Below, piece by piece: positions 2,179 to 63,716 of a stretch of DNA of 64,000 nucleotides. The notes under the pieces were generated by a model. It was given only the letters and a program-made list of their open reading frames with translations. It ran no database searches and was not told the origin of the DNA. The stretch is from an uncultured Gemmatimonadales bacterium (lineage in GTDB: Bacteria; Gemmatimonadota; Gemmatimonadetes; Gemmatimonadales; Gemmatimonadaceae): assembly GCA_963851265.1 (NCBI GenBank), contig CAWKNZ010000002.1, forward strand, positions 64,001 through 128,000. The letters run 5' to 3'. The number at the start of each line of letters is the position of its first letter. The stretch's first letter is position 1. A program made the position numbers and the translations under genes.

Positions 2179-4755
2179 GTGTCCGTCGCCTCCGTCAGCA
2201 CCGCGCTCCACGCCGTCTACTCACCGCCGCTCGTCGTCGCGTCGTTTCTGATCGCGGCCCTCGCGTCGTACACGGCCCTCGACTTCGCGGCACGCGTCAC
2301 GGCGGCTACCCGAATGGCGCGCGCGTGGTGGCTGGCCGGCGGCGCCGTCGCACTCGGCCTCGGCATCTGGGGCATGCACTTCGTCGGCATGCTCGCCGTT
2401 AGGCTCTACGCGTCCAACGGGTCGTCGCTCGCGACGGCGTACGACGTCGCGCGCGTGATCCTCTCCATCGTCGTGGCCGTGGCCGCGGCCGCGCTCGCGC
2501 TCTGGGTCTCGTCGCGCGCGGAAGTCGGGCGCGGTTCGCTCGCCGGAGCCGCACTCGTGATGGGCGTGGGCATCGCCGGCATGCATTACATCGGCATGGC
2601 GTCCATGCGCGTGCCCGGGGCGGCGGACGGCCTGCCGGGCATCACCTACCGCCCCGCGCTCGTCGGACTCGCCTACGCCATCGCGGCCGGCGCGTCGCTC
2701 GTCGCATTGTGGCTCGCGCGGCGCGCCTACCGCGAACGGGGCGCGTTCCTGGTACGGCTCGGGCTCCCCGCCGTGATCATGGGCCTGGCCATCGCCGGCA
2801 TGCACTACACGGGCATGGCCTCCGCCACCTTCCACCCGATCCTGACACCCGCGGCGCTCAACCTCGGTGACGCTGCCGACGTCACACTGGCCGTGGGTGA
2901 CGAACGCATCGCCGGGACGCTCCTCGCCACGCCCGCGCTCGGGGCCGCCGTCACCATCGCGCTGTTTTTCGTGCTCGCGTTCACGCTCATCGGGAGCACC
3001 GCCGGACGGTGGGCGGCTACGGCCCCACTTCCGGACGATCTGCTCGCCGTCCGGTCTGGAACGCCCACCCCACCCCGGCCGACGTCCACGCCCTCGCTCC
3101 CCGGCGACAACCGCCGCAACGACGGTCGTGGCCCGGGCGAGGGATGGCGCGCGTGGCACATGTGGCGCCGCGAGGCCGACGCGCTCGACGCGGGCGGGCC
3201 GTCGCTGCGCACCAAGCTCGCGGCCGGCAGCGCGGCGGCGGGACTCGTGCTCGTCGTCGCGCTCGTCGCGTACTGGGGCTTCGACCAGTTCGAGGAGGCG
3301 TCGAGCTGGCTCGCGCACACCTCGCAGGTGCGCGCCTCGGTCCAGGCGCTCGAGACGGCCGTGTCCGAGGCCGAAGCGTCGGGACGCGCGTACCTCCTGT
3401 ACGGGCGACCGCGCTACGTCGATCAGTACCGGGCCGAGGTCGCCCAGACCGAGCGCCACCTGACGACCGTCCGGCGCCTCACGGCCGACAATCAGCAGCA
3501 GCAGCGGCGCCTCGATCGCATCGACCCACTCTTCACGCGCCGTTTCAGCGTCATCGACTCCCTCATCGCGCTGCGCCAGCGCGGCGGTGCCAACGCCGTC
3601 CTCTCCGTCCTCGCACGGCGCGACAGCCTGTTCGGCGTGACCGACCGCGGCCTCCTGCTCGCCGACTCGCTCCACAGCCTCGTGTCCGAGGTCGACGGCG
3701 CGGAAGCGAAACTGTACGAGCGCCGCAGCGAGCGCCTCGCGACCCGCTCGAACATCGTCACCGTCACCCTCCTCGGCGGCAGCCTCGTCGCCTTCACGCT
3801 CATCCTGCTGATCCTCCAGGCCATCCGGCGCGACGTCGCCGCGCGCGAGGCCGCGCAGTCGCGCGTCCGCGAACAGGGCGAAGCCCTCGCCGTCCAGGCC
3901 GAACAGCTCGAACAGCAGCAGACCGAGCTGAAGCAGCAGGTCCAGGAGCAGCAGGTGATGAACGCGAAGCTGGCCGATGCCAACCACCAGCTCGAACGCA
4001 GCGCGTGGCGCCACGAGCGCCTCATCTACCAACTCGAGCGGAGCAACCAGGACCTCGATCAGTTCGCCTACGTCGCGTCGCACGACCTCAAGGCGCCGCT
4101 GCGCGGCATCGTCAACCTCGCGAGCTGGATCGAGGAGGACCTCGCCCCGGTGATGACCGACGACACGCGCGAGCAGATGCACCTCATGCGCGGACGCGTG
4201 CACCGGATGGAGGCGCTCATCGACGGCATCCTGCAGTACTCGCGCGCCGGCCGCGTCCGCACCGCCCCCGAACCGGTCGACACCGCCGTGCTCGTCGCCG
4301 ACGTCGTCGAGCTGATCGCGCCGCCCGAGGGCACGCAGATCATCGTCGCCGAAAACATGCCGAAGGTACTCGCCGAACGCGTGCCCCTGCAGCAAGTCTT
4401 CATGAACCTGATCGGCAACGCGATGAAGTACGCGCGCCGAGCCGACGCGCCGATGATGGTGCGCGTATCGTGGACCGAGGAGCCGGTCGACCCCGACGCC
4501 CCGCGACTGTATAGGTTCTCCATAGCCGACAACGGGCCCGGCATTGCTCCGCAATACCATGAGCGCGTGTTCGGCATTTTTCAGACGTTGCAGTCGCGTG
4601 ACCAGGTGGAGGGCACGGGCATCGGGCTCTCCGTGGTCAAGAAGATCGTCGAGGGGCAGGGCGGCCGAGTGTGGGTGGAGAGCGCCGAAGGCGAAGGCGC
4701 CACCTTCCACTTCACGTGGCCGGCGGCCCCCGTGTCCACCACCGCCGACGTATGA
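2179..4755 (+). CDS. Sensor histidine kinase MHYT-CHASE3-HisKA-HATPase
   Basis: Three MHYT motifs (MHFVGM, MHYIGM, MHYTGM); CHASE3 (WLAHT..V, EAEASGRAYLL, LTADNQQQQRRL); FAYVASHDLKAPLR, NLIGNAMKY, DNGPGI, GTGIGL. Confidence 0.9.
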   Translation: MSVASVSTALHAVYSPPLVVASFLIAALASYTALDFAARVTAATRMARAWWLAGGAVALGLGIWGMHFVGMLAVRLYASNGSSLATAYDVARVILSIVVAVAAAALALWVSSRAEVGRGSLAGAALVMGVGIAGMHYIGMASMRVPGAADGLPGITYRPALVGLAYAIAAGASLVALWLARRAYRERGAFLVRLGLPAVIMGLAIAGMHYTGMASATFHPILTPAALNLGDAADVTLAVGDERIAGTLLATPALGAAVTIALFFVLAFTLIGSTAGRWAATAPLPDDLLAVRSGTPTPPRPTSTPSLPGDNRRNDGRGPGEGWRAWHMWRREADALDAGGPSLRTKLAAGSAAAGLVLVVALVAYWGFDQFEEASSWLAHTSQVRASVQALETAVSEAEASGRAYLLYGRPRYVDQYRAEVAQTERHLTTVRRLTADNQQQQRRLDRIDPLFTRRFSVIDSLIALRQRGGANAVLSVLARRDSLFGVTDRGLLLADSLHSLVSEVDGAEAKLYERRSERLATRSNIVTVTLLGGSLVAFTLILLILQAIRRDVAAREAAQSRVREQGEALAVQAEQLEQQQTELKQQVQEQQVMNAKLADANHQLERSAWRHERLIYQLERSNQDLDQFAYVASHDLKAPLRGIVNLASWIEEDLAPVMTDDTREQMHLMRGRVHRMEALIDGILQYSRAGRVRTAPEPVDTAVLVADVVELIAPPEGTQIIVAENMPKVLAERVPLQQVFMNLIGNAMKYARRADAPMMVRVSWTEEPVDPDAPRLYRFSIADNGPGIAPQYHERVFGIFQTLQSRDQVEGTGIGLSVVKKIVEGQGGRVWVESAEGEGATFHFTWPAAPVSTTADV

Positions 4756-4762
4756 CGCCCGC

Positions 4763-5215: not shown

Positions 5216-5266
5216 GGGGGCCCTCCTGACCACGGTCACCGAATACGGGCCAGCGAGAGCGGACGT

Positions 5267-6609
<1,343 letters not shown>

Positions 6610-6613
<4 letters not shown>

Positions 6614-7193: not shown

Positions 7194-8687
7194 CGCCGCC
7201 CCCGCATCGTGCGGCCGCCCAGCAGCGGGCGGTCGCTGGTTCCGCTCGCCTTCGCGCTGACCGCCGCCGCCGCGGTCGCCAGCGCACGCCGCGTGTTTCC
7301 GTCAGTCACCCCGTCGGCGTCGCACTTCACGCTCGCCGACGGAGTGCGACGCCTGCGTGCCGCCGTCGTCGGCGACGCCCGCGAGCCCGCCGGCGCACCC
7401 GTGCTCGGCGAGTCGCCCGTACGCGCGCGACTCCGGGCGCGCACGTCGCGCCTCGCGCGCCGCACCACTCCGCTCGACGACGCCCGCAGCGCCCCACACA
7501 ACGACGTCGTCGGCGTCCCGTGGTGGGACGAGAACGCCGGCTGGGGCGCGGACGTCGTGCGCTGGGCCGAGCGCACTACCGCGCCACTCACGTCCGAAGC
7601 CGGGGACACCGTGGCCGTCGCGGCGCCAGCGCTCCCCGAGGCCCTCCCGACGGCGTTGCGCGCACGCGGCGTACACTGGAGCGCGCAGGGCGCGGTCACG
7701 CTGCTCGGCGATGGGCGTGCCGTGCTCGAGGCGCCGGGGAGCGCCGCCATCACCGCGGTCACGCCGGTCGGCGTCACGCGCACGCCCCTCATCGTGCGGC
7801 CCGTCGTCCGCGGCCGCCTGTACGCCGCCACCGACGGCGGGCCGGTGTCCGCGCGCATCGTCGTGCGTCGCGGTGCGTGGGCCGACACCACGTGGACCGA
7901 CGCGTCCGGCCGCTTCCGGCTCGGTCTCCCGCCCGACGCGAGCGCCCTCGACGCGGCCGACGTCCACGTGGAGCCGTCGGCGCCCGCCGCGCGCGGCGCG
8001 GTCGCCTACGAGCCGTGCGTACTCCATGCGGTGCCCGCCGCCCGCCTGCACACGTTAGGCGTCGTCGTCCTTCCCGCGCGCTGGACCGTCACGTCGGGCA
8101 GCTATGCCGGCGTCACCGTCCCGGTGCGCGCGACGGCCGCGCGCGGCTACTGGCAGTTCACGCGCGAGCACGGCGCCCCGATCGGCTGGATCCACGACGC
8201 GCCGCACACCGTGGCGTTCGCCCCCGGGTTCGATCCGGTCGACCAGGCGACGTTCTGGAGGGCCGCCCGCGCCGTCGAGGACGCGTGGGGGCGCTCGCTC
8301 TTCGTCCCGTTCACACCGGCCGCGTCCGGCGACTCCGCAGATGCCGACGTCGTCGTACGTCCCGTACCCACCCTGCACGCCGACGGACTCACCACCATCG
8401 GATGGGATGGCGTCGGTACCGTGGGTGGGGCGGCCATAGACTTTCGCATTCCCCGTCCGGGCACGCTGCAGCCGCAGGTCGCCGCCCACGAACTCCTGCA
8501 CGCCCTCGGGTTTGGCCACGCGCGCAACTGGCTTTCGGTGCTCGCGCCGGCCGGCCGCGCGATCGCGCCGGAACCCACGGCCGCCGACGTCGCCTACGGA
8601 CAGCTGTACGAGGGACTCCGCCGCCAGGCCCGCCGTGCCGAGCACGACTACGGCGGCGCCTACGGATGGGACGACGCGGCGCCCTGA
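7188..8687 (+). CDS. Secreted protein with C-terminal zincin-like metallopeptidase motif
   Basis: Hydrophobic N-terminal stretch; HELLHALGFGH (HExxHxxGxxH); start uncertain. Confidence 0.6.
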   Translation: MPRRPRIVRPPSSGRSLVPLAFALTAAAAVASARRVFPSVTPSASHFTLADGVRRLRAAVVGDAREPAGAPVLGESPVRARLRARTSRLARRTTPLDDARSAPHNDVVGVPWWDENAGWGADVVRWAERTTAPLTSEAGDTVAVAAPALPEALPTALRARGVHWSAQGAVTLLGDGRAVLEAPGSAAITAVTPVGVTRTPLIVRPVVRGRLYAATDGGPVSARIVVRRGAWADTTWTDASGRFRLGLPPDASALDAADVHVEPSAPAARGAVAYEPCVLHAVPAARLHTLGVVVLPARWTVTSGSYAGVTVPVRATAARGYWQFTREHGAPIGWIHDAPHTVAFAPGFDPVDQATFWRAARAVEDAWGRSLFVPFTPAASGDSADADVVVRPVPTLHADGLTTIGWDGVGTVGGAAIDFRIPRPGTLQPQVAAHELLHALGFGHARNWLSVLAPAGRAIAPEPTAADVAYGQLYEGLRRQARRAEHDYGGAYGWDDAAP

Positions 8688-8707: not shown

Positions 8708-9493
8708 TCACCCGTTGCGCAACAACGCTCCGAGAATCGACCCCGCCACCGACCCTCCGGACGACGCTCCCCCCGCGCGCGTGTTGTCGTCGTCCGCGCC
8801 GGTCCCGCCGTGCAGGTACATCGACTGCAGTCCCACGCGTCCCGGGCCCGTGAACCGGTTGAACGCGAGCGTCCCCGCGCTCGCGAACAGCCCCGTGCTG
8901 AGCCCCTGCGCGACCGTCTCGAGCTGCACCGACGGATCCTTGTAGACCCACCCGCCGGGCTCGACGTCGATCTGCGCGCCCGCGTCGAGCGTCACCTCGA
9001 ACAGGTTGCCGTACCCGTGCAGCCACACGATGCCGCCCCCCGGCTGCTCCGAGGTGAACGTGTCGACGAAGAACCCCGACCCGCCGAACAGCAGGTTGGC
9101 CACGCCCCGCACCCGCCGGAAGGTGTAGTCCACGCCGTTGGTCGCGGCCAGGAACTGGTGCTCGCGCACGTCGAGCGCCTGCCCCGGCGCGAGGTGCATC
9201 GCGATGACGTGCCCGGCCCCGTCGCGGCTGAACCCGATCTCGCCCGGTCCACGCGCCTCGGTCATGAAGATCGGCATCCCCGCCAGCATGCGCGAGAACG
9301 CGCCGCCTAACGGCTTCACCCCCACCTCCACCGAGCGGTTCTTCCAGAGCAGCACGTGGTGCTCGAAATACACGCCCTCCCGCGACAGCTCCACGTGCAG
9401 GACGGGCACGAGTTCGCCCTCGATGTGGTACGTGACGCCGGCGTACGTCTCGTCACGCCGAGCGGTGGGGAGCAGGACGGGGACGATCCGCAT
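8708..9493 (-). CDS. AIM24 family protein
   Basis: YHIEGELVPVL, FEHHVLLWK, GPGEIGFSRD, REHQFLAAT, WLHGYGN, FTGPGRVGLQSM. Confidence 0.8.
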   Translation of the reverse strand: MRIVPVLLPTARRDETYAGVTYHIEGELVPVLHVELSREGVYFEHHVLLWKNRSVEVGVKPLGGAFSRMLAGMPIFMTEARGPGEIGFSRDGAGHVIAMHLAPGQALDVREHQFLAATNGVDYTFRRVRGVANLLFGGSGFFVDTFTSEQPGGGIVWLHGYGNLFEVTLDAGAQIDVEPGGWVYKDPSVQLETVAQGLSTGLFASAGTLAFNRFTGPGRVGLQSMYLHGGTGADDDNTRAGGASSGGSVAGSILGALLRNG

Positions 9494-14300: not shown

Positions 14301-17300
14301 CGCGATGGCCAGCTCCGCCCCGAGCCGCGGTGCGACGGCCGCCGCGCCCAGGCGCACCGACAGCATGCTTCCCGTCGGGAGCTGTTGCATCATGCGGCCG
14401 CGCTCTGCCACGAGCCGCATGCCATCTTCCGGAGAGAACACGCCGGCGATCGCGGCCGCGACGAACTCGCCCACGGAGTGCCCCACCATCGCCCAGGGCC
14501 GAACGCCCCACGACTGCCACAACTCGGCGAGTGCGTACCCGGTCGCGAAGAGAGCGGGTTGTGTGACGGACGTCTGCCGCAGAACGGCCGCGGTGTCGGG
14601 CCCGTCCGCGAACAGCAGCTCGCGCAGGTCGCGGCCGAGGACCGCCCGCGCGCCCTCTGCGCAGCGGTCGAACGCCGCGCGGTAGACCGGCTCGCCGGCG
14701 TACAGCGCCGCACCCATCCGCGGGTACTGCGCGCCCTGGCCGGGAAACGCGAATACGACGCTCGGCGCCCCCCCGCCCGAGCGGCGCGTGTGCACGCGCC
14801 GCTCGTCGCGCGCGGCGAACGCGTCCGCCGCGTCGGCAGGTGACGACGCGACCACGGCGCGCCGGTGCGCGAACGCGCGCCGCCCCACGCGCAGCGTGTG
14901 CGCCACGTCCGCGAGGCACGCGTCGGGGCGCGCGCGCAGATGCGCCACGAGATCGTCCGTCGCACGCTCCAGCGCCGCCTCCGAACGAGCGGAGAGCACG
15001 AGCAGCTGCGCGCCCCGCGAAGGACCGTCGCTCGGGGGCAGCGGCGCCTCCCCGAGCACGATGTGCGCATTCGTGCCGCCCACCCCGAACGAGCTCACGC
15101 CAGCCATCCGGGGCCGCGCGCCGCGCGCCCACGCACGCGGTTCGGCCTGCACCCGGAACGGACTCCGCTCGAGCGCGAGGTGCGGGTTGGGCGCGGTGTA
15201 GTGCACCGTGCCCGGCAGGCACTCGTGCGCGAGGGCGAGCGCGGTCTTGATCACGCCGGCGGCGCCCGCCGCGACGACCGTGTGCCCCACGTTGCCCTTC
15301 ACCGAGCCGAGCGCGCACGGGCCGGCATCGGCCGGCCGCCCACCGAACACCTGCGAGAGCGCCGCGAACTCGACCGGATCGCCTAACGGCGTCGCCGTGC
15401 CGTGCGCCTCCACGTACGAGATCTCGTGCGGCGAGACGCCCGCGTCCGCGTGCGCCATCGCGACCGCGGCCGCCTGCCCGTCGACGCTCGGCGCCGTGAA
15501 GCTGGCCTTCGCCGCGCCGTCGTTGTTCAGCCCCACGCCGCGGACCACGGCGTGGATCGTGTCGCCGTCGCGCACCGCGTCGCTCAGGCGCTTGAGCGCC
15601 AGCACGGCGGCGCCGTCGCTGAACACCGTGCCCGACGCCGCCGCGTCGAAGGGACGCGTCCGACCGTCCGGCGACAGCATCCCGCCCTCCTGATACAGGT
15701 GGCCGCTGTTGGTCGGCACCGTGAGGGACACGCCGCCCGCGAGGGCGAGGTCGCACTGCCCCGCGCGCAGGCTCATCACGGCCTGGCAGATCGTCACCAG
15801 CGACGTCGAGCACGCGGTGTGGATGCTCAGCGCCGGTCCCGTGAGGCCCAGCCGGTGCGCGGTGCGCGTCGCGACGTAATCCTTCTCGTTGAGCAGCATC
15901 GCGTTGAACGCGCCGAACTGCTCCACCACGTCGGGCCGTCGCGCGAGCACCGTGCTCGCGTACGAGTTGTTGTACACGCCGGCGAACACGCCCACCGGCC
16001 CGTCATGTCGTTCGGGGACGTAGCCGGCGTGCTCGAGCGCGTGCCACGCGAGTTCGAGAAACAGGCGCTGCTGCGGGTCCATGATCTGCGCCTCGCGCGG
16101 CGACAGTCCGAAGAACCCCGCGTCGAACTGGTCGACGTCGCGCAGGGTGCCGCGTGCGGCCACGTACTGCGGATCGGCGCGGAGCCGCGGGTCCACCGCG
16201 GCGTCGAGCTCCGCATCGCTGAAGCGCGAGATCGATTCGACGCCGTCGCGCAGGTTGCGCCAGAACGCGTCCACGTCCGCCGCACCCGGAAACCGAGCCG
16301 CCATCCCGATGATGGCGACGGGCTCGGGCGCGCCGTCCGCCCGGCCGTTCGTGCGGTCGATCCCGCGCGGCGCCACGACCTGCACCGGTGCGTCGCCCGC
16401 GATATGCCCGGCCATCGCGCGCGGCGTGCGATGTTGGAAGAAGTGCGCGATGGGAATGTCGAGGCCCAGCCGCGTCTGCAGCCGCGCGCGCGCGCGCACG
16501 ACGAGCAGCGAGCTCGCCCCGAGGTCGAACACGTTGTCGTCCGGCCCGACGCGAGGAACGCCCAACAGTTCGGCCCACACCTGCGAGATAGCGCCCGCCG
16601 CGTCCTGCTCGGCCGGGGCCACGTGCGCCGGCGTGCCGCCGACATCGGGCGCGGGCAGGGCGCGCACGTCCACCTTACCGTTAGGCGTGAGCGGGAGCAC
16701 GCTCAGCCAGACGAAGGCGCTCGGCACGAGGTACTCCGGCAGCGTCGCCCGGAGCGCCTCGCGGATGGCGCCGTCGGCCGGCCGGGCGGTCGCCTCGGCG
16801 ACCACGTAGGCGACGAGCCGCTTGGGAAGACCCTCCGCGACCGCCCGCGCCACGACCGCCGCGTCGCGCACCCCGGGCACGCGGCGGAGCGAAGTAGCGA
16901 CCTCTTTCGGTTCGATACGGTACCCGCTGATCTTCACCTGGTCGTCCGCCCGACCGACGAACTCCAGCGCGCCGTTCGGCAACGTGCGCACGAGGTCGCC
17001 CGTCCGGTACAGGCGGGCGCCGGCATCGTCCGACCACGCGTCGTGCACGAAGCACTCCGCCGTCAGGTCCGGCCGCCCGAGGTAGCCGAGCGCGACTCCG
17101 GCACCGCCGATGAACAGCTCGCCGGTTTCGCCTGCGGGAACGGAACGCCGCTCGGCGTCCAGCACCCGCAGCGTCGTCTGCCGGATGGCGTACCCGATCG
17201 GCACCGACGTCCACGACTCCGGCACCGGCGACGGAATCGCGTAACAGGCGGCAAACGTCGTCGTCTCGGTCGGCCCGTACCCGTTGATGAGCTGGGTCCC

Positions 17301-18194: not shown

Positions 18195-19030
18195 GACACG
18201 CGCCCCGTCCTGCTCCACCGGTCGACCGCCGGAAGCGCGAGACACGTGTAGACATGGCCGTCCGCGATCGCGAACGCCACGTCGAACACCGCGCCGGCGC
18301 CGAACGTCGCCGAGGCGTCATCCCCGCCGAGGCCGCGCGTGAGGCGCAGGCGAACGGTGCGCGCCACACGGTCGAGTCGCGTGAGCCGGGCGTCGTCGAC
18401 GTCGAAGAACTCGCCGACCAGCGGGCGCAGGCACTTGTAGAGACTCTCTTTCGCCGAGAACCCGACGGTGACGAACTCCGCCCACGAGATCGCGTCGTCG
18501 CGGGCGACGGCATCGGCTTCGGGCAGCGCACTGCGCATGATCTCGTCCGCGTCGCGTTCTGCGAGCACCTGTTCGCAATCCACCCCCAGCCCGCGCCAGC
18601 GCGCCGCCGAACCGACGATCGCGACCGCGCGCGTGGCCGCGTGGGAGATCGAGCCGACCGCACCTGCCGGCCACGCGGGCGCACCGGCGTCGCCGATCGC
18701 GACCGGTACGTCGCCGTTCCACCCGGCCGCATCTAGCGCCAGCGACGCGCAGTAGCGCCCCGCCAGGTATGCAGCGAGTCGGCGCGGCGCAGCCCGCACC
18801 AGCGCGGGTTCGTAGGCGACGACCGACTCGCGACACCCGTCGCCGACAGCGGCGAAGCACACCGCGTGCGCCGACCACCCCCCGCGCCGAACGATCGCGG
18901 GCGCGACGACGTCGCTGACGTGCAACGCGGCATCGTCGCGTCCCGCCATGCGCACGCGCATGCTGCGCGGGTGCACGCCGCGCGCGTGTACCGCGTCGGC
19001 TACGCCCGGGGGCTCGTACAAGGTTCTCAT
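18191..19030 (-). CDS. 4'-phosphopantetheinyl transferase (EntD-like)
   Basis: YLAGRYCA, GAPAWPAGAVGSISH, GLGVDCE, FSAKESLYK; start uncertain. Confidence 0.88.
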   Translation of the reverse strand: MRTLYEPPGVADAVHARGVHPRSMRVRMAGRDDAALHVSDVVAPAIVRRGGWSAHAVCFAAVGDGCRESVVAYEPALVRAAPRRLAAYLAGRYCASLALDAAGWNGDVPVAIGDAGAPAWPAGAVGSISHAATRAVAIVGSAARWRGLGVDCEQVLAERDADEIMRSALPEADAVARDDAISWAEFVTVGFSAKESLYKCLRPLVGEFFDVDDARLTRLDRVARTVRLRLTRGLGGDDASATFGAGAVFDVAFAIADGHVYTCLALPAVDRWSRTGRVS

Positions 19031-19104
19031 TGCGTGCTCATGCGTAGGTGGTGCAACTCGTCGTTCTGCGAGAGATTGGCGCACTTCGCCCATTTCTCGG
19101 ATCT

Positions 19105-20040
19105 ATGAATCGTCTGTCCGCCCGGGGTGCGTTTCTCGGTAGCGTGCTCGTTGCGGGTCTGCTGCTCGCATGGGGCGGCATCCGGATGGCCCGCGCCGCA
19201 GCGAGCGAACTCGCCGACTTCCACCCGACCCGCCGCGCGATCCCACTGCCCACGGACGCCGACGCACTCGCCCTCCGTCCGGTCACGTTCGCGGTACCCG
19301 GCTCGGGGCCGATCCACGGCTGGTACGCGCCGACGCACAACGGCGCGGCCGTCATCCTGCTCCACGGCAGCGGGAGCGACCGCCGCCAGGTGCTCGGCGT
19401 TGCGCGCGCTCTCGTCCAGGGCGGATACGGCACCCTCCTGTTCGACTGGCCGGGGCACGGCGAGAGCGACGGCGTCGTGCGGTACGGCGCGCCGGAGCGC
19501 CGCGCCCTGCAGGTCGCAGTGCGCTACGTCCAGGACCAATCGGGCGTCGCCGAAGACCGGATCGGCGTCTATGGCTTTTCGATCGGTGCATTCATCGCAG
19601 CGCAGGTCGCGGCGGTCGACCGCCGGGTACGCGCCGTCGTCCTCGCGGCGCCCCCCGCCGACGCGGTGCTCTTTACGCGCCACGAGTACGCCGCCGGGGG
19701 CCCAATGGCACAGTGGGGCGCGCTGCTCGGTCTGCGACTCGGCGGAATGCGATTCGACGAGCCTCAGCCGGCCGCGCTGGTGCACCGCATCGCCCCCCGC
19801 CCGCTTCTCGTCGTCACCGGTACGGCCGACCGCACCGTGACGCCCGCGATGGCGCGCGAACTCTACGCCGCCGCGGGCGAGCCGAAGCGGCTGTGGCTCG
19901 TCGCAGGAGCGGGCCACGGCGGGTACGACGCGGTGGCACCGGACTTCGGGGCGGGCATTCGCACGTTCTTCGACGGGGCGCTCGCGCCGACGGCGGGCGC
20001 GGGCGCAGGCGCGCCGCCGACGCCGATCGCCAGTCGTTAG
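19105..20040 (+). CDS. Membrane-anchored or secreted alpha/beta hydrolase
   Basis: N-terminal TM/signal, LLHG, FDWPGHGESDG, GFSIG nucleophile, GTADRTV, GAGHG. Confidence 0.85.
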   Translation: MNRLSARGAFLGSVLVAGLLLAWGGIRMARAAASELADFHPTRRAIPLPTDADALALRPVTFAVPGSGPIHGWYAPTHNGAAVILLHGSGSDRRQVLGVARALVQGGYGTLLFDWPGHGESDGVVRYGAPERRALQVAVRYVQDQSGVAEDRIGVYGFSIGAFIAAQVAAVDRRVRAVVLAAPPADAVLFTRHEYAAGGPMAQWGALLGLRLGGMRFDEPQPAALVHRIAPRPLLVVTGTADRTVTPAMARELYAAAGEPKRLWLVAGAGHGGYDAVAPDFGAGIRTFFDGALAPTAGAGAGAPPTPIASR

Positions 20041-47442: not shown

Positions 47443-49173
47443 TTATGGCGTCAGGACGACGGTGCTGACGCTGAGCGCCGGCATCGCGTAGTCGAAGGCG
47501 TTGCCCGGCGCGAGCGCGAGGTCGGGGGCGCGCGCGGGGGCGGGTCCGGCGGCCGTGAGCGTGTAGACGCGGGCGGTGCGCAGCGCCGCGGTGTGGGCGA
47601 CGACGACGTGCGCGGTCTGGGCGGTGCGCCGCTTGTTGATGGCGACGAGGACGACGCGGCCGCGCGCGTCGAGGCTCGCGTAGACCGACGCGGCCGCGGC
47701 GTCGCTCGTCGTGGCGCCGACGCCGGTGTCGCCGAAGCGGCCGCCCGCGCCGTCGTAGTTGAGGAACATGCGGAACGCGGCGAAGGCGTAGGCATAGGCC
47801 ACCGCGCCGCGGCCGGCGTAGGGCGGGGCCCACGCGTTGGCCTGCGGCCAGAGCGCGGCCGCGTAGACGCCCTCGCGGCCGAAGATGCCTAACACATCGG
47901 CCTGTGCGACGCCGCCGGACACGTCGCCCGCGCGGCCGTAGTAGTACTCGCTGACCGCGAGGCGGGTGTCGGGGTAGTGCGCGGCGACGGCGTCGCGCAG
48001 GCGCGGCAGGAGCCGCACGGGCCCGCCCGTGACGTCCGATACCCAGCTGTGCTCGTCGTAGGTGGGGTCCCAGAGTGAGCGCGGCGCCTGCACCCGCGCC
48101 TCGACGGCGGCGGAGTCCTGTGGGGCGTTGTCGTTGGTGATGGGGCCGCCGCGCGTGCCGGCGGCGGGGTACCAGTGCACGTCGAGCACGTCGAGCAGGC
48201 GGCGCCCCTCCGCCGACTCGGCCGCGCGCAGGCGGTCGAGGTAGACGTCGACGAAGGCGTGCGCGCGCCAGTTGCCGTACACCGGGTCGTCGGCGGGGTA
48301 GCGACCGAGGGTGAGCACGCCCGTGTACGTGGCGAGCGCGGGGCCGAAGACGAGGGCGTCGGGCGCGGCGCGCTTGACCGCGCGGGCGAAGGCGATGGTG
48401 GTGTCGGCGAACGCGTCGTAGGTCTGGAGGCGGGGCGCCGCGGGGTCGTCGCCGCGGTCGCTCTCGATCTCCTTGTGCGTCGCGTGCCAGGAGTCGGGCT
48501 CGTTGTCGAGCGAGAACATGAGGCGCCGCGTGGTGTCGCCGGTCGCGCCGGGGAAGGTGCGGGTGGCCCAGCGCACGAACTCGTCCTGGTAGACCGGCGC
48601 ACCCGGGCCGGCTGTCGCGGACGTGGCGCCGTCGCGCGTGGGGGCGTTGCGCCGGAAGTGGGCGGCGAGGCGGGCGTCGCGCCCGGCGTCGCTCGTGCCG
48701 ACGTCGCAGTTGCACGCATCGCCGGCGACGTATGGCAGCATCGGAATCGTGGCGAGGAACGCGGCGCCGCGGGCGAATGCCCCGGCCGCGCGCACGCGCA
48801 CCGCCTCGCCGGGGACGGTGCTGGCGCTGAGGTACTGATCGTTGTGGAAGTGGTAGTCGTTGCCGGCGTTGGAATAGTTGGTTTGCCAGTTGTACGCGGA
48901 AAGGCGATTGCCGCCCATGCGGTCGAAGGTGGCCTCGGCGGGCGGGAGGGTGCCGGCCCACGCGGCGGAGTCGCCGGCCGCGTTCACGCCGTAGATGAGG
49001 CGTGAGATGGCGTGCCGCTCGGCGGTGTTCACGCGGAAGGTGAGCGGCGCCTGCGCGCCATCCGGCGGGGTCGTGCCGGGCGCGGTGGGCCGCGGCGCGT
49101 CGGCGCAGGTGACGACGGCGACGGCGGCGCAGAGGGCGGCGTAGGAGGCCAACGCGGAGGAAACAGTGGGCAC
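47443..49173 (-). CDS. Glycoside hydrolase family 44 (secreted or lipoprotein)
   Basis: ISRLIYGVN, GGNR..YNW..N.SNAGND, LDNEP, RLLDVLDVHWYP, RSLWDPTY, SEY, QADVLGIFG; start uncertain. Confidence 0.85.
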   Translation of the reverse strand: MPTVSSALASYAALCAAVAVVTCADAPRPTAPGTTPPDGAQAPLTFRVNTAERHAISRLIYGVNAAGDSAAWAGTLPPAEATFDRMGGNRLSAYNWQTNYSNAGNDYHFHNDQYLSASTVPGEAVRVRAAGAFARGAAFLATIPMLPYVAGDACNCDVGTSDAGRDARLAAHFRRNAPTRDGATSATAGPGAPVYQDEFVRWATRTFPGATGDTTRRLMFSLDNEPDSWHATHKEIESDRGDDPAAPRLQTYDAFADTTIAFARAVKRAAPDALVFGPALATYTGVLTLGRYPADDPVYGNWRAHAFVDVYLDRLRAAESAEGRRLLDVLDVHWYPAAGTRGGPITNDNAPQDSAAVEARVQAPRSLWDPTYDEHSWVSDVTGGPVRLLPRLRDAVAAHYPDTRLAVSEYYYGRAGDVSGGVAQADVLGIFGREGVYAAALWPQANAWAPPYAGRGAVAYAYAFAAFRMFLNYDGAGGRFGDTGVGATTSDAAAASVYASLDARGRVVLVAINKRRTAQTAHVVVAHTAALRTARVYTLTAAGPAPARAPDLALAPGNAFDYAMPALSVSTVVLTP

Positions 49174-50091: not shown

Positions 50092-51144
50092 ATGCAGCTG
50101 ACCTTTCGCTGGTTCGGGGCGGGCGACCCGGTGCGCCTGGAGTACATCCGGCAGATCCCGGGAGTGGCGGGGATCGTGAGCGCGTTGCACGACGTGCCGG
50201 TGGGCGAGGCGTGGGCCGCCGGTGCGGTGGCGCGGCTGCGTGACACGGTCGAGGCGGCCGGGCTCCGGCTCGCGGTGGTCGAGAGCATCCCGGTGCACGA
50301 GGACATCAAGCTCGGGCGGCCGACGCGGGACCGACTGATCGACCGGTGGTGCGAGAGTGTCGCGGCGGTGGGGGCGGCCGGGGTGCCGGTGGTGTGCTAC
50401 AACTTCATGCCCGTGTTCGACTGGACGCGGACGGAGCTGGCGCGGCCGGACGCGGACGGATCGACGGCACTCGCGTACGACGACCGGGCGGTGGCGCGGA
50501 TCGACCTGTCGCGCGGGACGGGGGACCTGCCGGGGTGGGGGGCGGCGTACACGGCGGACGAGCTCGCGGCGCTGCTGGCGGCGTACCGCCTCGTGCCGGC
50601 GGAGCGGCTGTGGGAGCACCTCGCGTATTTCCTGGAGCGGGCGGTGCCCGCGGCGGCCGCCGCCGGGGTGCGCCTGGCGATCCACCCGGACGACCCGCCG
50701 TGGCCGATCTTCGGGCTGCCGCGGGTGGTGACGAGCGGCGCGGCGCTGGAGCGGGTGACGCGGCTGGTGGACCACCCCGCGAACGGGGTCACGTTCTGCA
50801 CCGGCTCGTTAGGCGCGAACCCGGCGGACGACCTGCCCGCGGTGGTGCGGCGGCTCGGGGCGCGGGTGCACTTCGCGCACTGCCGGAACGTGGCGGTCGG
50901 CGGCGGGCCCGAACCGGGCGCGCGGGCCTTCCGCGAATGTCCGCACCCGTCGGCGTACGGGCGGGTGGACATGCTGGCCGTGCTGCGGGCGCTGCACGCG
51001 GTGGGGTTCGCCGGCCCGGCGCGCCCCGACCACGGGCGGATGATCTGGGGCGAGTCGGGGCGGCCGGGGTACGGGCTCTACGACCGAGCGTTAGGCGCGG
51101 CGTACCTGAACGGCCTGTGGGAGGCGGTGGCGCGGCCCGCGTAG
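50092..51144 (+). CDS. uxuA: Mannonate dehydratase
   Basis: FRWFG, ESIPVHEDIK, CYNFMPVFDWTRT, IHPDDPP, FCTGSLG, RPDHG, GYGLYDRALG. Confidence 0.95.
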   Translation: MQLTFRWFGAGDPVRLEYIRQIPGVAGIVSALHDVPVGEAWAAGAVARLRDTVEAAGLRLAVVESIPVHEDIKLGRPTRDRLIDRWCESVAAVGAAGVPVVCYNFMPVFDWTRTELARPDADGSTALAYDDRAVARIDLSRGTGDLPGWGAAYTADELAALLAAYRLVPAERLWEHLAYFLERAVPAAAAAGVRLAIHPDDPPWPIFGLPRVVTSGAALERVTRLVDHPANGVTFCTGSLGANPADDLPAVVRRLGARVHFAHCRNVAVGGGPEPGARAFRECPHPSAYGRVDMLAVLRALHAVGFAGPARPDHGRMIWGESGRPGYGLYDRALGAAYLNGLWEAVARPA

Positions 51145-51991: not shown

Positions 51992-52117
51992 GCTGATGGG
52001 TGTCGCGCGGGAACCGCCGGGGCAACGCCTAACGCGCTCCGCGGCTGCGCCCGGGCGCGCGCGAACGACCGGGTCGTAGCAGGGTAGCCGCGCGCCCCCC
52101 GGTGCGCCAGCGATACC

Positions 52118-52147
52118 GCCTAACGTAGCGCGCGCGCTACGTTAGGC
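52118..52147. repeat. Perfect 30-bp palindrome made of two inverted GCCTAACG octamers
   Basis: gcctaacgtagcgcgcgcgctacgttaggc equals its own reverse complement. Confidence 0.9.
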
Positions 52148-54709: not shown

Positions 54710-57055
54710 ATGACGACGCCCATCGCCCGCGAGACCCCGGCCGCCCTCGACACGTTCCTGCGCGACTACCGCGCGGTGCTGGCGCGCGTTGGGCGGCTCG
54801 GCACGCGTGCCGGGCTCACGGCGGCGGCGGCGGTCCGGGCGCTCGCGGGGGCGCCGTTCACGTTACCGGATGCGTTGCGGCAGGCCGGGCCCGATGGGCC
54901 CAGCGTCGGTGGCGCGCTGGAGGCGCTCGCGGCGCGGCGCGCCACGCTCGGCGCGGCACCGTGGGAGGTCGAGCGGGCGGTCATTGAAGCCCTTGCAGCC
55001 GAGTTCGCGTCGGCGTCTGCCGTGCCGCCCGCCGCACCGCTTGCGGAGCTGTCCGCCGCGCAGCCTGGGGTGCGATCGGACGAGTTGTTCGAGCCGCCGC
55101 ACCCACCGCCGCCTGCGATCCGCCGGCAGACCCGGTCGGTCGAGCCGCCGCCGCGGCCCCTCTCGGACGGATTGGCGGGGGCGGCCGCGGACGGCGGTGC
55201 GTGGATGGACGTCTTCGATAGCTTCGGCGCCGGCGACGAGCTTGCGGCGGAACCCGTTCCGGCGCGCGGACCGGGGTTGCTCGGGGACGACGCCGCGCCG
55301 CCCGCGCCCGTCCCGCCGCCGCCCCCTGCGGCGGTCCCCGGGGCTGCGCCGGCGCCGAGCGTGGCCGCGGACGCGCCGTCACGGTGGTTCAACGCCGAGT
55401 TCGAGGACCAGCCGGCGGACGCGCCGTTTCGCGTGGGCACCTCCTACGCGCTCGCCTTCGGCGTGGGCACCGCGCGGACGACCGCGTTAGGCGGTAGCGC
55501 GCCCGTGGTCGAGGCCGTGCTCTTTCCGGACGGCGTCGACGAGTTGGAACTGACCGTCGAACTCGCGAGCGACGACTTCCGGATCCCTCAGCCGACGCGC
55601 CCGCTGCGTCTGCCGCGCGCGGGCGCGTCGCGTGGAAAGGCGCGCTTCGACGTCGAGCCGCTGCACGACGGCCCGTGCGCCCTCGTCGCGACGGTGCACA
55701 ACCACGGCAATTTCGTGCAGCGGATCGAGCTCACCGTCACGGCGGTCGGCGCGGCGGCCGTCGCCCCCGCCGCGCCCCTGGCGCCCGCCGCAGCGGTCAC
55801 CGTCGCCGCGGTCGGACGCGCCGCGGGCTCGAGCGCGGCGCTCAGGCCGCGGAACGTGAGCCTCACGCTCACCCCCACCGCCGACGGCTACGACTGTATC
55901 GTCGTCGGCGCGGTGTCGGCGCGCGCGCGGCTGCGCGTCACCCCGGTGCTGCTGGCCGCGGCGGTCGAGGCGGCGCGGCAGGCGATGACGCGGGTCGTGA
56001 TGCTGCGGGACGACGCGGGGCGGAACGTCTTCCAGGACGGCATCGACATCCCCGTCGCGCAGAGCGAGGTGGCGGACCGCATCCTCGCCCGCGCCGGGGC
56101 GCGGCTGTTCCAGCAGCTGTTCGAGGGCCCGGGGGCCGGCCCCGACTCGCTCGGCGTCGCCGACTACCTGCGGCGTCAGACGCGCGACCCGGCCGTGCGC
56201 CTCACGCTGCAGGTGGTGGCGGAGGGTGCGCCGGTGCCGTGGGCGATGCTCTACGTCGGCGACGCGCCCGACGAGGCCGCCGGCGCGCTGCCGGCGCCCG
56301 ACCGGACGTGCTTCCTCGGGCTGCGCCACGTGATCGAGCAGATCCCGCTGCAGAACACGCTCGCGGTGGCCGACGCCTCGATCGCGAGCGACCGGCCGGG
56401 GCTCGCGGTCAGCGTCAACGTGAACAGCGGCATCGACGCGCAGTTTGGCGTGTCGGTGGTGGCCGACCAGCAGCGGTTCTGGAGCACCACGGCCGCGGCG
56501 TGCGCGCAGCTCCGGCTCACGTCACGCAGCACGCGCGACCAGCTCATGCGAGCGCTCGCGAACGCGGGCACGGACGATCAGATCCTGTACTTCTACGGCC
56601 ACGCGCAGAGCACGGGCGTGGGAGCCGCGGGCGGGCCCGACGCGTCGGCGCTCGTGCTGAGCGACGCGCGCGTGACGCTCGGCGATCTCTACCTCGACGC
56701 GCCGACACGGGTGCCGCTCGCCGGCAGCCCGCTCGTCTTTCTCAACGCCTGCGAATCGGCGGAGCTGTCGCCGACGTTTTACGACGGATTCGTGCCCTAC
56801 TTCATGGCGAAGGGGGCGCGGGGCGTGATCGGCACCGAGTGCCGCACGCCGGCGCTGTTCGCGGCCGAGTGGGCGCGGCGCTTCTTCGAGCGCTTCCTGG
56901 CCGGGGAATCGGTGGGCGATGCGGTCCTCGCGCTCCGCCAGGAGTTCCGCGAGCGGCACGGCAACCCGCTCGGCCTGCTGTACGCGGTGCACTGCGACAG
57001 TGATACCCAGGTCGCGCCCGCGCTCCCCGTGCCGGCGCCGCCTGGCGCAGCCTAA
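54710..57055 (+). CDS. CHAT (caspase-like) domain protein
   Basis: C-terminal ILYFYGHA and VFLNACES His/Cys dyad, GARGVIGTE, NPLGLLY; Pro-rich linker and beta-rich middle domain. Confidence 0.82.
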   Translation: MTTPIARETPAALDTFLRDYRAVLARVGRLGTRAGLTAAAAVRALAGAPFTLPDALRQAGPDGPSVGGALEALAARRATLGAAPWEVERAVIEALAAEFASASAVPPAAPLAELSAAQPGVRSDELFEPPHPPPPAIRRQTRSVEPPPRPLSDGLAGAAADGGAWMDVFDSFGAGDELAAEPVPARGPGLLGDDAAPPAPVPPPPPAAVPGAAPAPSVAADAPSRWFNAEFEDQPADAPFRVGTSYALAFGVGTARTTALGGSAPVVEAVLFPDGVDELELTVELASDDFRIPQPTRPLRLPRAGASRGKARFDVEPLHDGPCALVATVHNHGNFVQRIELTVTAVGAAAVAPAAPLAPAAAVTVAAVGRAAGSSAALRPRNVSLTLTPTADGYDCIVVGAVSARARLRVTPVLLAAAVEAARQAMTRVVMLRDDAGRNVFQDGIDIPVAQSEVADRILARAGARLFQQLFEGPGAGPDSLGVADYLRRQTRDPAVRLTLQVVAEGAPVPWAMLYVGDAPDEAAGALPAPDRTCFLGLRHVIEQIPLQNTLAVADASIASDRPGLAVSVNVNSGIDAQFGVSVVADQQRFWSTTAAACAQLRLTSRSTRDQLMRALANAGTDDQILYFYGHAQSTGVGAAGGPDASALVLSDARVTLGDLYLDAPTRVPLAGSPLVFLNACESAELSPTFYDGFVPYFMAKGARGVIGTECRTPALFAAEWARRFFERFLAGESVGDAVLALRQEFRERHGNPLGLLYAVHCDSDTQVAPALPVPAPPGAA

Positions 57056-57080
57056 CGCCACCCTCTCTGCGAGCGCTCCC

Positions 57081-58469
57081 GTGCCCCTTCGCACCGTGCC
57101 CGGCACCGACGCCGAGTACTTCCTCGTCTGCTACGACGCCGACGGCGTCGAGCGCCCCGAGCCCGACGGGTCGCGGCTGAGCGACGCCGTGCGCGCGCGG
57201 GTCGCGGCGGGTGGCGTGACCGACGTGTTCTTCACGAGCCACGGGTGGAAGGGCGACGTTCCGGGCGCGATCGCGCAGTATGACGCGTGGGTGGGGGCGA
57301 CGGTCGCGCTCGAGGCCGATCGCGCGCGCGCGCGGCAGCGCCGCCCGGGGTTTTCCGCGCTCGTCGTCGGCGTGCACTGGCCGAGTTTGCCGTGGGGGGA
57401 CGAGACACCGGACGCGTCGGGCTCACCGGGCCTGTTATCGGCGGATGCGGCGGGCGTTCGGGGCGGGGAAACAGTGGACGCGTACGCGGAGCGCATTGCC
57501 GACACGCCGGCAGCGCGCGCTGCGTTGGCGGCGATCTTCGCCGCGGCCGACCGCGGGGTCGGCCCAGCGCCGGACGGCTCGCTGCCGGCCGACGTGCGCG
57601 CGGCGTACGGGACGCTGTTCGCCGAGTCGGGCCTGGGGACCGCGGGGCGGGACGTGGGGGGCGGCGCGCCGCCGGGCGCCGACCAGGACGCGTTCGACCC
57701 CGAGGCGATGATCCGCGAGTTGCAGGCGGCGCCGCCGATGGCAGCCACCGGCGCGCCGATGCTGCTCGGGGATGGTTTCTTCGATCGCCTGCGTGACCTG
57801 TTGCTGACGCCGGTGCGCCAGCTCTCGTTCTGGAAGATGAAGGACCGGGCGCACGTGGTGGGCGAGTCGGGGGCGCACGCGTTGCTCGCCGCGCTCGAGC
57901 GGGCGGCGCCGGCGTCGACGCGCTTCCACCTGATGGGGCACAGCTTCGGGTGCATCGTCGTGACCGCGGCCGTGGCGGGTCCGCCGGGCGGGCCGGGGCT
58001 GCCGCGACCGGTCCACTCGCTCTTCCTCGTGCAGGGGGCGCTGTCGCTCTGGGCCTACACGCCCGACGTACCGTACGCGCCCGGGACGCCGGGGTACTTC
58101 GCGCGGATCGTGGCCGAGGGGCTGGTCGCGGGACCCATCGTGACGACGCGCTCGACGTTCGACACGGCGGTCGGCCGCTTCTACCCGTTAGGCGCGCGGG
58201 CGCGGGGGGACGTGGTCCTCGCCGACGACCTGCCCAAGTACGGCGGCGTCGGCGCGTTCGGCATCCGCGGGCTGGACGGGGTGGCCGAGGACCTGCCGAT
58301 GCAGGGGGCGGCGTACCCGTACGCATTCGGCGCGGGGCGGATCTACAACCTCGAGGCGAGTGGGGTGATCCGGGCGATGGACGGGCTGTCGGGGGCGCAC
58401 AGCGACATCGCGCACCCGGAGGTGGCGCACGCGTTCTGGGCGGGGGTGTTGGCGGACGAGGGAGGGTGA
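57081..58469 (+). CDS. Alpha/beta hydrolase
   Basis: FTSHGW, GVHWPS, SFWKMKDRA, HLMGHSFG, LVQGA, GAHSDI. Confidence 0.8.
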   Translation: MPLRTVPGTDAEYFLVCYDADGVERPEPDGSRLSDAVRARVAAGGVTDVFFTSHGWKGDVPGAIAQYDAWVGATVALEADRARARQRRPGFSALVVGVHWPSLPWGDETPDASGSPGLLSADAAGVRGGETVDAYAERIADTPAARAALAAIFAAADRGVGPAPDGSLPADVRAAYGTLFAESGLGTAGRDVGGGAPPGADQDAFDPEAMIRELQAAPPMAATGAPMLLGDGFFDRLRDLLLTPVRQLSFWKMKDRAHVVGESGAHALLAALERAAPASTRFHLMGHSFGCIVVTAAVAGPPGGPGLPRPVHSLFLVQGALSLWAYTPDVPYAPGTPGYFARIVAEGLVAGPIVTTRSTFDTAVGRFYPLGARARGDVVLADDLPKYGGVGAFGIRGLDGVAEDLPMQGAAYPYAFGAGRIYNLEASGVIRAMDGLSGAHSDIAHPEVAHAFWAGVLADEGG

Positions 58470-58838: not shown

Positions 58839-58911
<73 letters not shown>

Positions 58912-59617: not shown

Positions 59618-59698
59618 GGTGGAGATGATACGAAGCCCCGCGGCTTGGCCGCGGGGCGAAAGTCGAACCGTCCGGTTGACGCACCGGCGGAGCGGCGC

Positions 59699-61030: not shown

Positions 61031-61092
61031 CTGGAAACCGGGCGGCAGAAACGGCGCGCGGACGCGCCACGTGGGCGGGCGTGGGCCCCGAG

Positions 61093-62187: not shown

Positions 62188-62252
62188 GACGTGCGGAAGA
62201 GGTCGAAAAGGTGGAACGGAGAAACGGCGACGTCCCGAGCGCAATTTCCGGT

Positions 62253-63716
62253 TCAGCGCGCCATCAGAAACTGCAGCATGTCCCCGCGCGTGACGATCCC
62301 GGCCACGTGCCCCCCCTCGGCGACGAGCAGCGCCGGCGTCGTCTTCGAAAGCAACTTGGTGACCGCGTCCGCCGGCTCCTCCGCCCCGACCACCGGGAAC
62401 GGCTCGTCCATCACCTCGCCGACCGTGGCGTCGAGGAACCGCGTGCTCTCGAGCGAACGCGTGGTGAGGAACTGCTCGGTCACGCTCCCCACGCACTGCT
62501 CGCCGTCCATGACGGGCAGCTGCGACACGTCGTGGAGCCGCATGAGGCCTAACGCCTGCCGCACGAGCGCGCCCGGCGCGGTGGCGACGAGCTGCGACGG
62601 CGCGGTGCCGTCCCCCTGCGCCTTGCCCGCGACCAGGGCGCCGAGGGTGACGCGGTCCGGCTCGAGCAGCTGGTTCTCGCGCATCCACTCGTCGTTGTAG
62701 AGCTTCGAGAGGTAGCGCTCGCCCGTGTCGCAGAGGAACGTCACGACGCACGCGTTGGGGTCGTCGAGCCGCCGCGCGAGCTGCAGCGCGGCGTGCGCGA
62801 TGAGCCCCGCCGACCCGCCCACGAACAGCCCCTCCTCGCGCGTGAGCCGGCGCGCCGCGGCGAAGGCGTCGCGGTCGCTCACCGTCACGTAGTCGTCGAG
62901 CACCGCGAGGTCGAGCGTCGCGGGCAGCTTGTCCTGCCCGATCCCCTCGACCTTGAACGGCGCCGGCTCGCCGGCGGGCGCGCGCGGGTCCTTCCGCTGC
63001 CGCCAGAGCGAGGCGAGGATCGACCCCACCGGGTCGGCGGCGATCATCTGGATGTCGGGGTTCCGCTCCTTCAGATAGCGCCCGACGCCGGAGAGCGTGC
63101 CGCCCGTGCCCGCCGCGGCGACGAAGTGGGTGATGCGCCCGCCGGTCTGCTCCCAGAGCTCGGGGCCCGTGGTGGCGTAGTGCGCGTCGGGGTTCGCCTG
63201 GTTGTCGAACTGCCCCGCGAGCACCGCCCCCGGCGTCTCCTTCGCGATGCGCTTGGCCATCATCACGTAGTTGTCCGGGTGGTCCGGCGGCACGGCGGTC
63301 GGCGTGATGATCACCTCGGCGCCGAACGCCTTCAGCAGGCGCACCTTTTCCTGCGACATCTTGTCGGGCATCGTGAAGATGCACTTGTAGCCCTTCATCG
63401 CCGCCGCGATGGCGAGCCCGACGCCGGTGTTGCCGCTGGTCCCCTCGACGATGGTCCCGCCCGGCTTGAGCGCACCGGCCCGCTCGGCGGCCTCGACGAT
63501 CGGCAGGCCGATGCGGTCCTTGACCGAGCCGCCCGGGTTGAAGAACTCCGCCTTGCCGTAGAGCGGCGTGCGGGTGCTCCGCCCGTACCGCGCGAGCCGG
63601 ATGAGCGGCGTCCAGCCGATCGTCTCGAGGACCGAGGCGTAGGGCAGGCGGTGCCGCGGCTGTTCAGCCGCGTGTGGGTCCGTCAGCGTGTCGACGGGAG
63701 AGAGCAGGGTGGCCAT
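62253..63716 (-). CDS. cbs: Cystathionine beta-synthase with CBS domains
   Basis: NPGGSVKDRI, EGTSGNTG, GTGGT, VEGIG, CDTGERYLSK, C-terminal CBS pair. Confidence 0.9.
   Translation of the reverse strand: MATLLSPVDTLTDPHAAEQPRHRLPYASVLETIGWTPLIRLARYGRSTRTPLYGKAEFFNPGGSVKDRIGLPIVEAAERAGALKPGGTIVEGTSGNTGVGLAIAAAMKGYKCIFTMPDKMSQEKVRLLKAFGAEVIITPTAVPPDHPDNYVMMAKRIAKETPGAVLAGQFDNQANPDAHYATTGPELWEQTGGRITHFVAAAGTGGTLSGVGRYLKERNPDIQMIAADPVGSILASLWRQRKDPRAPAGEPAPFKVEGIGQDKLPATLDLAVLDDYVTVSDRDAFAAARRLTREEGLFVGGSAGLIAHAALQLARRLDDPNACVVTFLCDTGERYLSKLYNDEWMRENQLLEPDRVTLGALVAGKAQGDGTAPSQLVATAPGALVRQALGLMRLHDVSQLPVMDGEQCVGSVTEQFLTTRSLESTRFLDATVGEVMDEPFPVVGAEEPADAVTKLLSKTTPALLVAEGGHVAGIVTRGDMLQFLMAR

Follow-up and report, generated by a model that had tools for sequence, protein, structure and literature searches.

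The word YGTTAGGC, read on either strand, is heavily over-represented in the DNA of an uncultured Gemmatimonadales bacterium, where its copies exclude each other within about 250 bp and lie at the centre of a local loss of A/T from synonymous sites, referred to here as the GC halo. The copies were noticed in a window of 64,000 nt (GCA_963851265.1, contig CAWKNZ010000002.1, positions 64,001–128,000 of the forward strand) and were analysed here in the window, on its contig (C2) and throughout the genome that holds it (G000; 4.6 Mb in 12 contigs, 73% GC, 94% complete, 3,694 genes from our own gene caller), as well as in relatives and phages. With a probability of roughly 45%, we read YGTTAGGC as a double-stranded DNA tag resembling DNA uptake sequences (DUS) and uptake signal sequences (USS), for which a putative reader protein would favour tagged DNA as the donor in short-tract homologous recombination with GC-biased repair.

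The over-represented unit

The octamer GCCTAACG/CGTTAGGC occurs in 27 exact copies in the window, while dinucleotide shuffles average 1.06 copies and never exceed 4; a preliminary description of this DNA had expected roughly two. All 27 starts listed in that description hold the exact octamer and the window contains no further copy of it, but its choice of unit stands only in part: the word is over-represented and non-palindromic as claimed, yet the unit is a 7-bp core, GTTAGGC/GCCTAAC, with a preferred pyrimidine before GTTAGGC (C 79%, T 14%), and for YGTTAGGC the list lacks two T-variant copies at 22278 and 47887. The 25 flanking bases of the core carry no further signal apart from codon periodicity. 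Copies in the window are as follows (exact octamers unless given as T variants, with amino acids for those read in frame):

2397..62554, either strand: dispersed word YGTTAGGC, preceded by C in 27 copies and by T in 2
2397..2404, minus: GTT-AGG (VR)
8053..8060, minus: T-L-G (TTA GGC)
9305..9312, plus: P-L-G
15381..15388, plus: P-L-G
16679..16686, minus: T-P-N (CCT AAC)
20035..20042, minus: copy stopping two convergent genes, TAG of the plus-strand gene ending at 20040 and TAA of the minus-strand gene ending at 20037
22278..22285, plus: T variant GCCTAACA, L-L-G, absent from the first list
23690..23697, minus: V-P-N
25019..25026, minus: T-P-N
25539..25546, minus: R-L-T (CTA ACG)
30490..30497, minus: L-P-N
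30918..30925, minus: R-P-N
33540..33547, plus: A-L-G
34092..34099, minus: R-L-T
35872..35879, plus: P-L-G
39300..39307, minus: Q-P-N
42417..42424, plus: A-L-G
44944..44951, minus: G-P-N
47887..47894, plus: T variant GCCTAACA, V-L-G, absent from the first list
50807..50814, minus: S-L-G
51089..51096, minus: A-L-G
52027..52034, plus: intergenic copy
52118..52147, both strands: intergenic inverted pair (52118 plus, 52140 minus) that could fold into a hairpin; few inverted pairs this close exist in the genome
52424..52431, plus: A-L-G
55485..55492, minus: A-L-G
57050..57057, plus: last codon and TAA stop of the plus-strand gene ending at 57055
58186..58193, minus: P-L-G
62547..62554, plus: A-L-G

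Genome-wide, the octamer numbers 1,396 copies, found on every one of the 12 contigs (0.27–0.41/kb), and the core, with 1,762 copies, is the top-ranked word for k = 6–10 against an order-3 model. Coding DNA holds 1,281 copies of the core where synonymous codon resampling predicts 31, a 41-fold excess that is far from an observed-to-expected ratio near one. Among 21 one-off variants of the core, only GTTGGGC (2.6x) exceeds 1.6x under the same null. Nor is the enrichment a general property of TTA-containing words, as the runner-up TAA-containing 7-mer has 213 copies in the genome, and 995 of the 1,278 TTA codons fall inside the word. The over-representation of YGTTAGGC is real.

A force on DNA rather than protein

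The suggestion that selection or bias acts on the DNA rather than the protein is borne out. Both orientations to transcription are used, with 17% of the best synonymous openings occupied for Leu-Gly (LG) and 22% for Pro-Asn (PN). The word also supplies stop codons (123 GCC-TAA-C, 83 GT-TAG-GC) and occupies spacers, with the highest intergenic density between convergent genes (1.46/kb) and the lowest between divergent genes (0.24/kb), and the tripeptide counts of the best openings are barely altered (0.97–1.33x). For the window copies, the reported LG, PN, LT and VR frames were all recovered. The suggested check in relatives likewise yielded conservation: congeners have 20/44, 17/28, 23/30 and 17/27 of the G000 sites in common, above a 4-fold identity of merely ~0.6–0.65. 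Sites also turn over between congeners, and 24 non-independent pairs at 84–99% identity have 56 sites in common and 22 unique.

Mutual exclusion of copies

Copies exclude each other within ~250 bp. With sites redistributed among synonymous openings as the null, neighbours less than 300 bp apart number 31 where 117 are expected; openings within 200 bp of another site are rarely filled (20/637), those at 200–300 bp somewhat more often (36/323), and those at 300–3,000 bp in ~21% of cases. The deficit is alike for direct and both inverted arrangements, with 3 close GCCTAAC..GTTAGGC pairs in genes vs 18 expected within 300 bp, and LG openings are more strongly excluded than PN openings (12/539 vs 6/64 filled). 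Exclusion repeats on the plasmids of G. kalamazoonensis (600 kb; 38/421 filled within 200 bp vs 203/641 beyond 500 bp), and its reach is shorter, ~100–150 bp, in the denser relative G012.

A GC halo centred on the word

We measured the halo as A/T at third codon positions (AT3), with the word's own bases left out. AT3 is 3.5% at 8–50 bp from a site, 5.7% at 300–400 bp, 7.3% at 1–1.5 kb and 8.4% at 3–5 kb, whereas it is flat at ~6.8% around empty openings. The halo is symmetric on both sides of the word, is present for CGTTAGGC and TGTTAGGC and weaker with A, and is missing for GGTTAGGC and for eight control word sets. A gene-fixed-effect fit in G000 gives B = -0.70 +/- 0.03, with a best scale of 200–300 bp. 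Almost all A/T-ending codons drop ~2–3-fold near sites, whether or not the partner codon is preferred, and A and T are halved alike, while the C/G balance scarcely shifts and C<>G divergence is unchanged. No 5'-context specificity of the halo was found.

In 7/8 lineage contrasts, the site-holding lineage has the deeper halo, with the greatest depth at shared sites, and on a regional scale the GC content of third codon positions (GC3) co-varies with site density (rho 0.47, 224 windows). A 1% local change in GC would probably not bring about a seven-fold difference in occupancy, and we infer from this that the site is the cause of the halo. Elsewhere, the within-gene halo is significant in 3/7 other samples (G004, -1.15 +/- 0.17; G012, -0.16 +/- 0.05; pooled rich loci, -0.23 +/- 0.06), and two whole phages show the same direction, with few codons. 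A halo is not unique to YGTTAGGC: around HIP1, on plasmid alpha of Nostoc PCC 7120, AT3 drops with proximity to sites, reaching 0.63 from 0.73, and B within genes is -0.21 +/- 0.04.

Distribution among relatives and phages

The word is patchily distributed. Among 40 relatives, 14 are rich (37–1,250 octamers/Mb) and 26 poor (<20/Mb; the unpublished G011 is one of these). In a sample of the phylum that included four unpublished genomes, CCTAAC rose above half its reversed control in 7/200 genomes, all inside the order, and in 0/62 outside it. For one of the seven, G215, the word is not among the top words in 40 kb; we considered and rejected the word as the source of the high CCTAAC in G215, G204 and G115, which reflects the lower GC of these 20–40 kb samples. 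Only 12 of the 80 named loci are rich, the remaining 68 being nearly empty, with rich clades adjoining empty sisters, and a second gene tree of 31 genomes again interleaves rich and poor, with uneven support. The cultured type strain G. kalamazoonensis carries 892 + 806 copies on two megaplasmids, and G012 tolerates Y at the word's last base. Word-poor genomes have no other prominent dialect word in 7–40 kb samples from six genomes.

Four viral scans covered 138 loci together with their flanks, and 110 of these loci reach 8 kb or more. Three tailed-phage contigs carry the dispersed word at 0.9–1.2/kb, a density like that of host DNA. The two of them that are whole encode integrases, and one also a RadC 64% identical to that of G000. 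One soil sequencing run contributed a small share of words, on fragmentary contigs.

Identity with integron attC ends

The R'/R'' boxes of attC sites follow the consensus GTTRRRY/RYYYAAC, and in the word-poor genomes G027 and G025 the word occurs almost solely at integron attC hairpin ends, as CGTTAGGC and GCCTAACA. It also forms the ends of 9 attC-like candidates in the scanned integron regions of G000, and the C and T that it favours at the 5' side correspond to the attC R' and R'' ends. The rest of the genome differs: copies there are single, without partner box or hairpin, and lie inside ordinary genes, so that a paired R''-L''...L'-R' hairpin (~55–150 bp) is not the rule for the word, with the ~9 attC-like hairpins confined to the scanned regions.

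The R'' end is GCCTAACG in 6/7 GCCTAAC-type attC candidates of G000 vs GCCTAACA in 23/29 pairs of the G027/G025 arrays, which looks as though attC ends, too, were remodelled by the drive. The G000 integron itself (L026, C6:1–6,100) has an intI interrupted by a serine-recombinase element, and a cassette array rich in toxin-antitoxin-like genes (by-eye labels) lies on a contig other than that of intI (C10:188,900–215,000). One scan of IMG/VR found attC-like GCCTAAC..GTTAGGC pairs in 28/80 loci (e.g. L224, L234, L238, L248, L249 and L260); several of these are arrays of 4–6 with a pitch of ~350 bp, which may be gene-cassette arrays inside phage-like contigs.

A donor tag as the preferred explanation

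If YGTTAGGC is a tag of the DUS/USS kind, its reader would most simply be, as in those systems, a competence-pilus receptor for DNA uptake. Self-drive of a new copy would depend on its lying on a short DNA fragment free of other copies, which could account for exclusion. DNA beside a copy would be recombined more often, and GC-biased repair of the heteroduplex could then deplete synonymous sites of A/T for a few hundred bases around, leaving the halo, which would also penalise a second, A/T-rich copy. A donor tag is supported by the strand-neutral 41-fold excess of a perfect word, by its conservation, by the exclusion and the halo, and by further observations. G000 has a competence set, with ComEC and ComEA intact and PilB/T/C, minor pilins, DprA and ComM present (DprA, ComM and PilB/T/C labelled by motif or eye). 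Temperate phages carry the word, and HP1, a temperate phage, likewise has 17 USS in 32 kb. Spacing of DUS in Neisseria matches conversion-tract length (PMC2397512), and the GC pattern of bacterial GC-biased gene conversion (gBGC) is described as independent of codon optimality (PMC4450053).

Several observations weigh against a donor tag. Competence genes are equally common in word-poor relatives (ComEC 40/41, ComEA-type 40/41, minor pilin 37/41), and none of the seven proteins or families, of ~3,700, that were profiled over 41 genomes tracks the word (IntI, ComEC, one minor pilin, helix-hairpin-helix (HhH)/ComEA proteins, tyrosine recombinases, uracil-DNA glycosylase (UDG) and the Eco57I-like methylase described below). 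The halo consists mostly of transitions, with G/C-to-A/T transitions at 0.0126 near sites vs 0.0373 far from them and transversions at 0.0106 vs 0.0235, and AGG/CGG and ATA/ATC are flat near sites, all of which fits repair too. Samples of G001, G002 and G003 show no significant halo within genes (B -0.05 to -0.06), nor do the G. kalamazoonensis plasmids (600 kb; -0.07 +/- 0.06), though exclusion holds there. Close inverted pairs number about five genome-wide, and inverted terminator pairs are rare; the rare TTA is the main codon carrying the word, and tripeptides of the best openings are not doubled, both unlike DUS/USS. Finally, flanks of the word are slightly less divergent (4-fold differences 0.339 vs 0.396; transitions 0.040 vs 0.048), whereas DUS flanks are reported as slightly more divergent (PMC2397512).

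We think it doubtful that some Gemmatimonadales have a receptor tuned to the attC end YGTTAGGC, perhaps first for cassette uptake. In any lineage gaining it, molecular drive would spread the word over chromosome, megaplasmids and prophages and turn every copy into a point-like, donor-favoured hot spot of GC-biased conversion. Such tuning would account both for the return of a single spelling in separate clades and for its agreement with the two attC ends. In V. cholerae, transformation supplies cassettes to chromosomal integrons (PMC12614218).

Alternative explanations

The bias towards transitions, like the slightly reduced divergence of the flanks, leaves room for an intracellular tag that serves repair or protection. 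A cytoplasmic protein binding the word might shield or repair ~+/-250 bp against C:G to T:A changes; selection would then add copies until this range is protected, a second nearby copy being useless. We regard this as unlikely, though the best of the competing accounts. Besides the predominance of transitions and the flat AGG/CGG and ATA/ATC, it agrees with the unchanged C<>G divergence and with a strand-neutral word found on chromosome, megaplasmids and temperate phages, and it is feasible by our own rough estimate (selection ~1e-8, Ne 1e8–1e9). Against it, word-rich and word-poor genomes are not told apart by their number of UDG-family genes, the denser G012 has a weak halo and the G. kalamazoonensis plasmids none that was detected, and there is no 5'-context specificity. 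Better MutS/L repair pushes toward A/T, not G/C, and phages would seem unlikely to be selected for such tags.

A site of nucleoid or chromosome architecture is improbable. Here a footprint or loop limit of ~250 bp would set the spacing and the halo would be a by-product or the correlate of a third factor, such as mosaic segment history. The even spacing in all orientations, the contrast between convergent and divergent intergenic regions and the regional co-variation of GC3 with site density are in its favour, but the ter/dif region has ordinary occupancy, the word is entirely absent from sister clades, and a 45-kb gap around parAB in G000 is not repeated in G012, G223, G227 or G228.

More improbable again is a methylation-directed drive after the manner of HIP1, with a methyltransferase that tags the word and so tilts mismatch repair. 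GCCTAAC resembles type IIG targets in being non-palindromic with a penultimate A. An Eco57I-like N6-methylase of 1,141 aa with intact motifs, conserved across the order (38/41 genomes), adjoins a SNF2 helicase in G000 (L194, C7:579,717–585,511), and the HIP1 halo on the Nostoc plasmid is a further point in favour. However, the methylase is alike in rich and poor genomes, with no discriminating column; its tree groups genomes by family, and it looks like a conserved core methylase. SMRT sequencing (single-molecule, real-time) detects m5C poorly; a C5-methylase (PF00145) has no match in G000, a genome 94% complete. HIP1 also lacks exclusion on the 408-kb Nostoc alpha plasmid. Most directly, the published SMRT methylome of the word-rich G. 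kalamazoonensis comprises just RGATCY, ATGCAC and CCAGN7TCA, without YGTTAGGC (PMC3974934).

It is very unlikely that the word is a scattered attC R-box, written or read by the integron integrase itself. The word does equal the R' end of attC hairpins in relatives and the ends of attC sites in G000, the C and T before it mirror the R' and R'' ends, and G012 tolerates Y at its last base. Yet IntI matches occur in 10/14 word-rich vs 19/26 word-poor relatives, the G000 intI is interrupted, and CGTTGGGC, which ends two G000 attC sites, has no halo. As IntI does not track the word and genomic IntI targets need merely GWT (bioRxiv 10.1101/2022.09.11.507474), IntI is unlikely to be the reader.

A polar signal for end resection or translocation, like Chi or the FtsK-orienting KOPS, suits a non-palindromic word of about the right length, temperate phages that carry it and an AddA-like helicase (labelled by motif), but is largely refuted by missing polarity: the halo is symmetric, and on C2, where dif was located, leading and lagging strands are occupied alike (LG 188/1139 vs 109/637, PN 30/126 vs 37/195).

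Other features of the window and genome

Large nonribosomal peptide synthetase-like (~2,280 aa) and polyketide synthase-like (~2,160 aa) genes lie inside an exopolysaccharide-like cluster at window positions 11,358–26,516 (by-eye labels), and the sole Rfam match in the window is a tRNA gene at 58,839–58,911 on the minus strand. Relatives G012, G018 and G010 encode secreted proteins with several tandem ComEA-like HhH units (L201, L202, L203), which have no match among the predicted proteins of G000. On C2:800,000–1,830,000, a strong convergent gene-strand bias is centred on dif near 1,368,950, with both 16S genes pointing towards dif; such bias in Gemmatimonadota has reportedly been the topic of a paper. 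We rejected an identity of the word with XerD/dif, as the dif arm reads TTATGTAAAC. The word-free stretch of 45 kb in G000 (C1:182,876–227,962) holds mnmG, parA, parB and mnmE (by-eye labels) at a lower GC3 (~0.90), with dnaA ~185 kb away on the same contig. Exclusion around ParB or the origin was rejected as a rule, with normal density in the parB area of the four genomes named above and, around parB in G001 and G004, a partial dip at most.

Comparison with known systems

The literature on Gemmatimonadota with over-represented oligonucleotides or uptake sequences, in which few subscription papers were covered, holds no description of the word, and searches for the word itself returned only unrelated papers. 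For uptake sequences together with GC-biased conversion, one general paper was found. The mutual exclusion, GC halo and attC spelling identity of YGTTAGGC are new.

Of the systems named as analogues in the preliminary description, DUS/USS are the closest, although several features differ. Like them, YGTTAGGC is short and non-palindromic, has many perfect copies on both strands, is evenly spaced without replichore bias, is conserved beyond synonymous divergence and is carried by temperate phages, as USS are by HP1. It is shorter (7–8 bp), however, with no flanking signal, few inverted terminator pairs, little tripeptide enrichment and flanks that are not more divergent. Its use of rare codons also sets it apart (PMC2817400). 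DUS/USS are dialects of whole families, whereas one YGTTAGGC spelling is patchy across three families, and we do not claim membership of the class. HIP1 (GCGATCGC, cyanobacteria) is likewise highly iterated within genes, conserved and, on Nostoc plasmid alpha, surrounded by a GC halo, but YGTTAGGC is non-palindromic, absent from the methylome of a cultured carrier and subject to short-range exclusion. Chi and KOPS are also over-represented, non-palindromic and 7–8 bp long; YGTTAGGC differs in its lack of polarity and its symmetric halo. With attC R'/R'' boxes it has identical spelling, including C/T before G (the G027, G025 and G000 arrays and the 28/80 viral loci), but it is stricter than attC and does not track IntI.

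Self-tags for DNA exchange are, to our knowledge, known from just two bacterial families. Should YGTTAGGC be such a tag, it would be the third such system, one switched independently and found in a phylum abundant in soil, and the attC-end identity could connect self-recognition with gene-cassette capture. G. kalamazoonensis KBS708 is a carrier in culture with a sequenced genome, and sister clades free of the word serve as natural controls. The centred halo, on its scale of 200–300 bp, allows the long-standing question whether recombination or repair raises bacterial GC to be addressed at unusually fine resolution. The motif-centred, codon-optimality-independent loss of A/T resembles gBGC at recombination hot spots (PMC4450053), with the difference that YGTTAGGC accumulates rather than erodes, so that the tagged allele would be the donor. 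A receptor tuned to attC ends would make the halo a base-pair-scale map of bacterial gBGC. PRDM9 directs recombination to hot spots centred on a motif that erodes itself, and YGTTAGGC would then be its mirror image.

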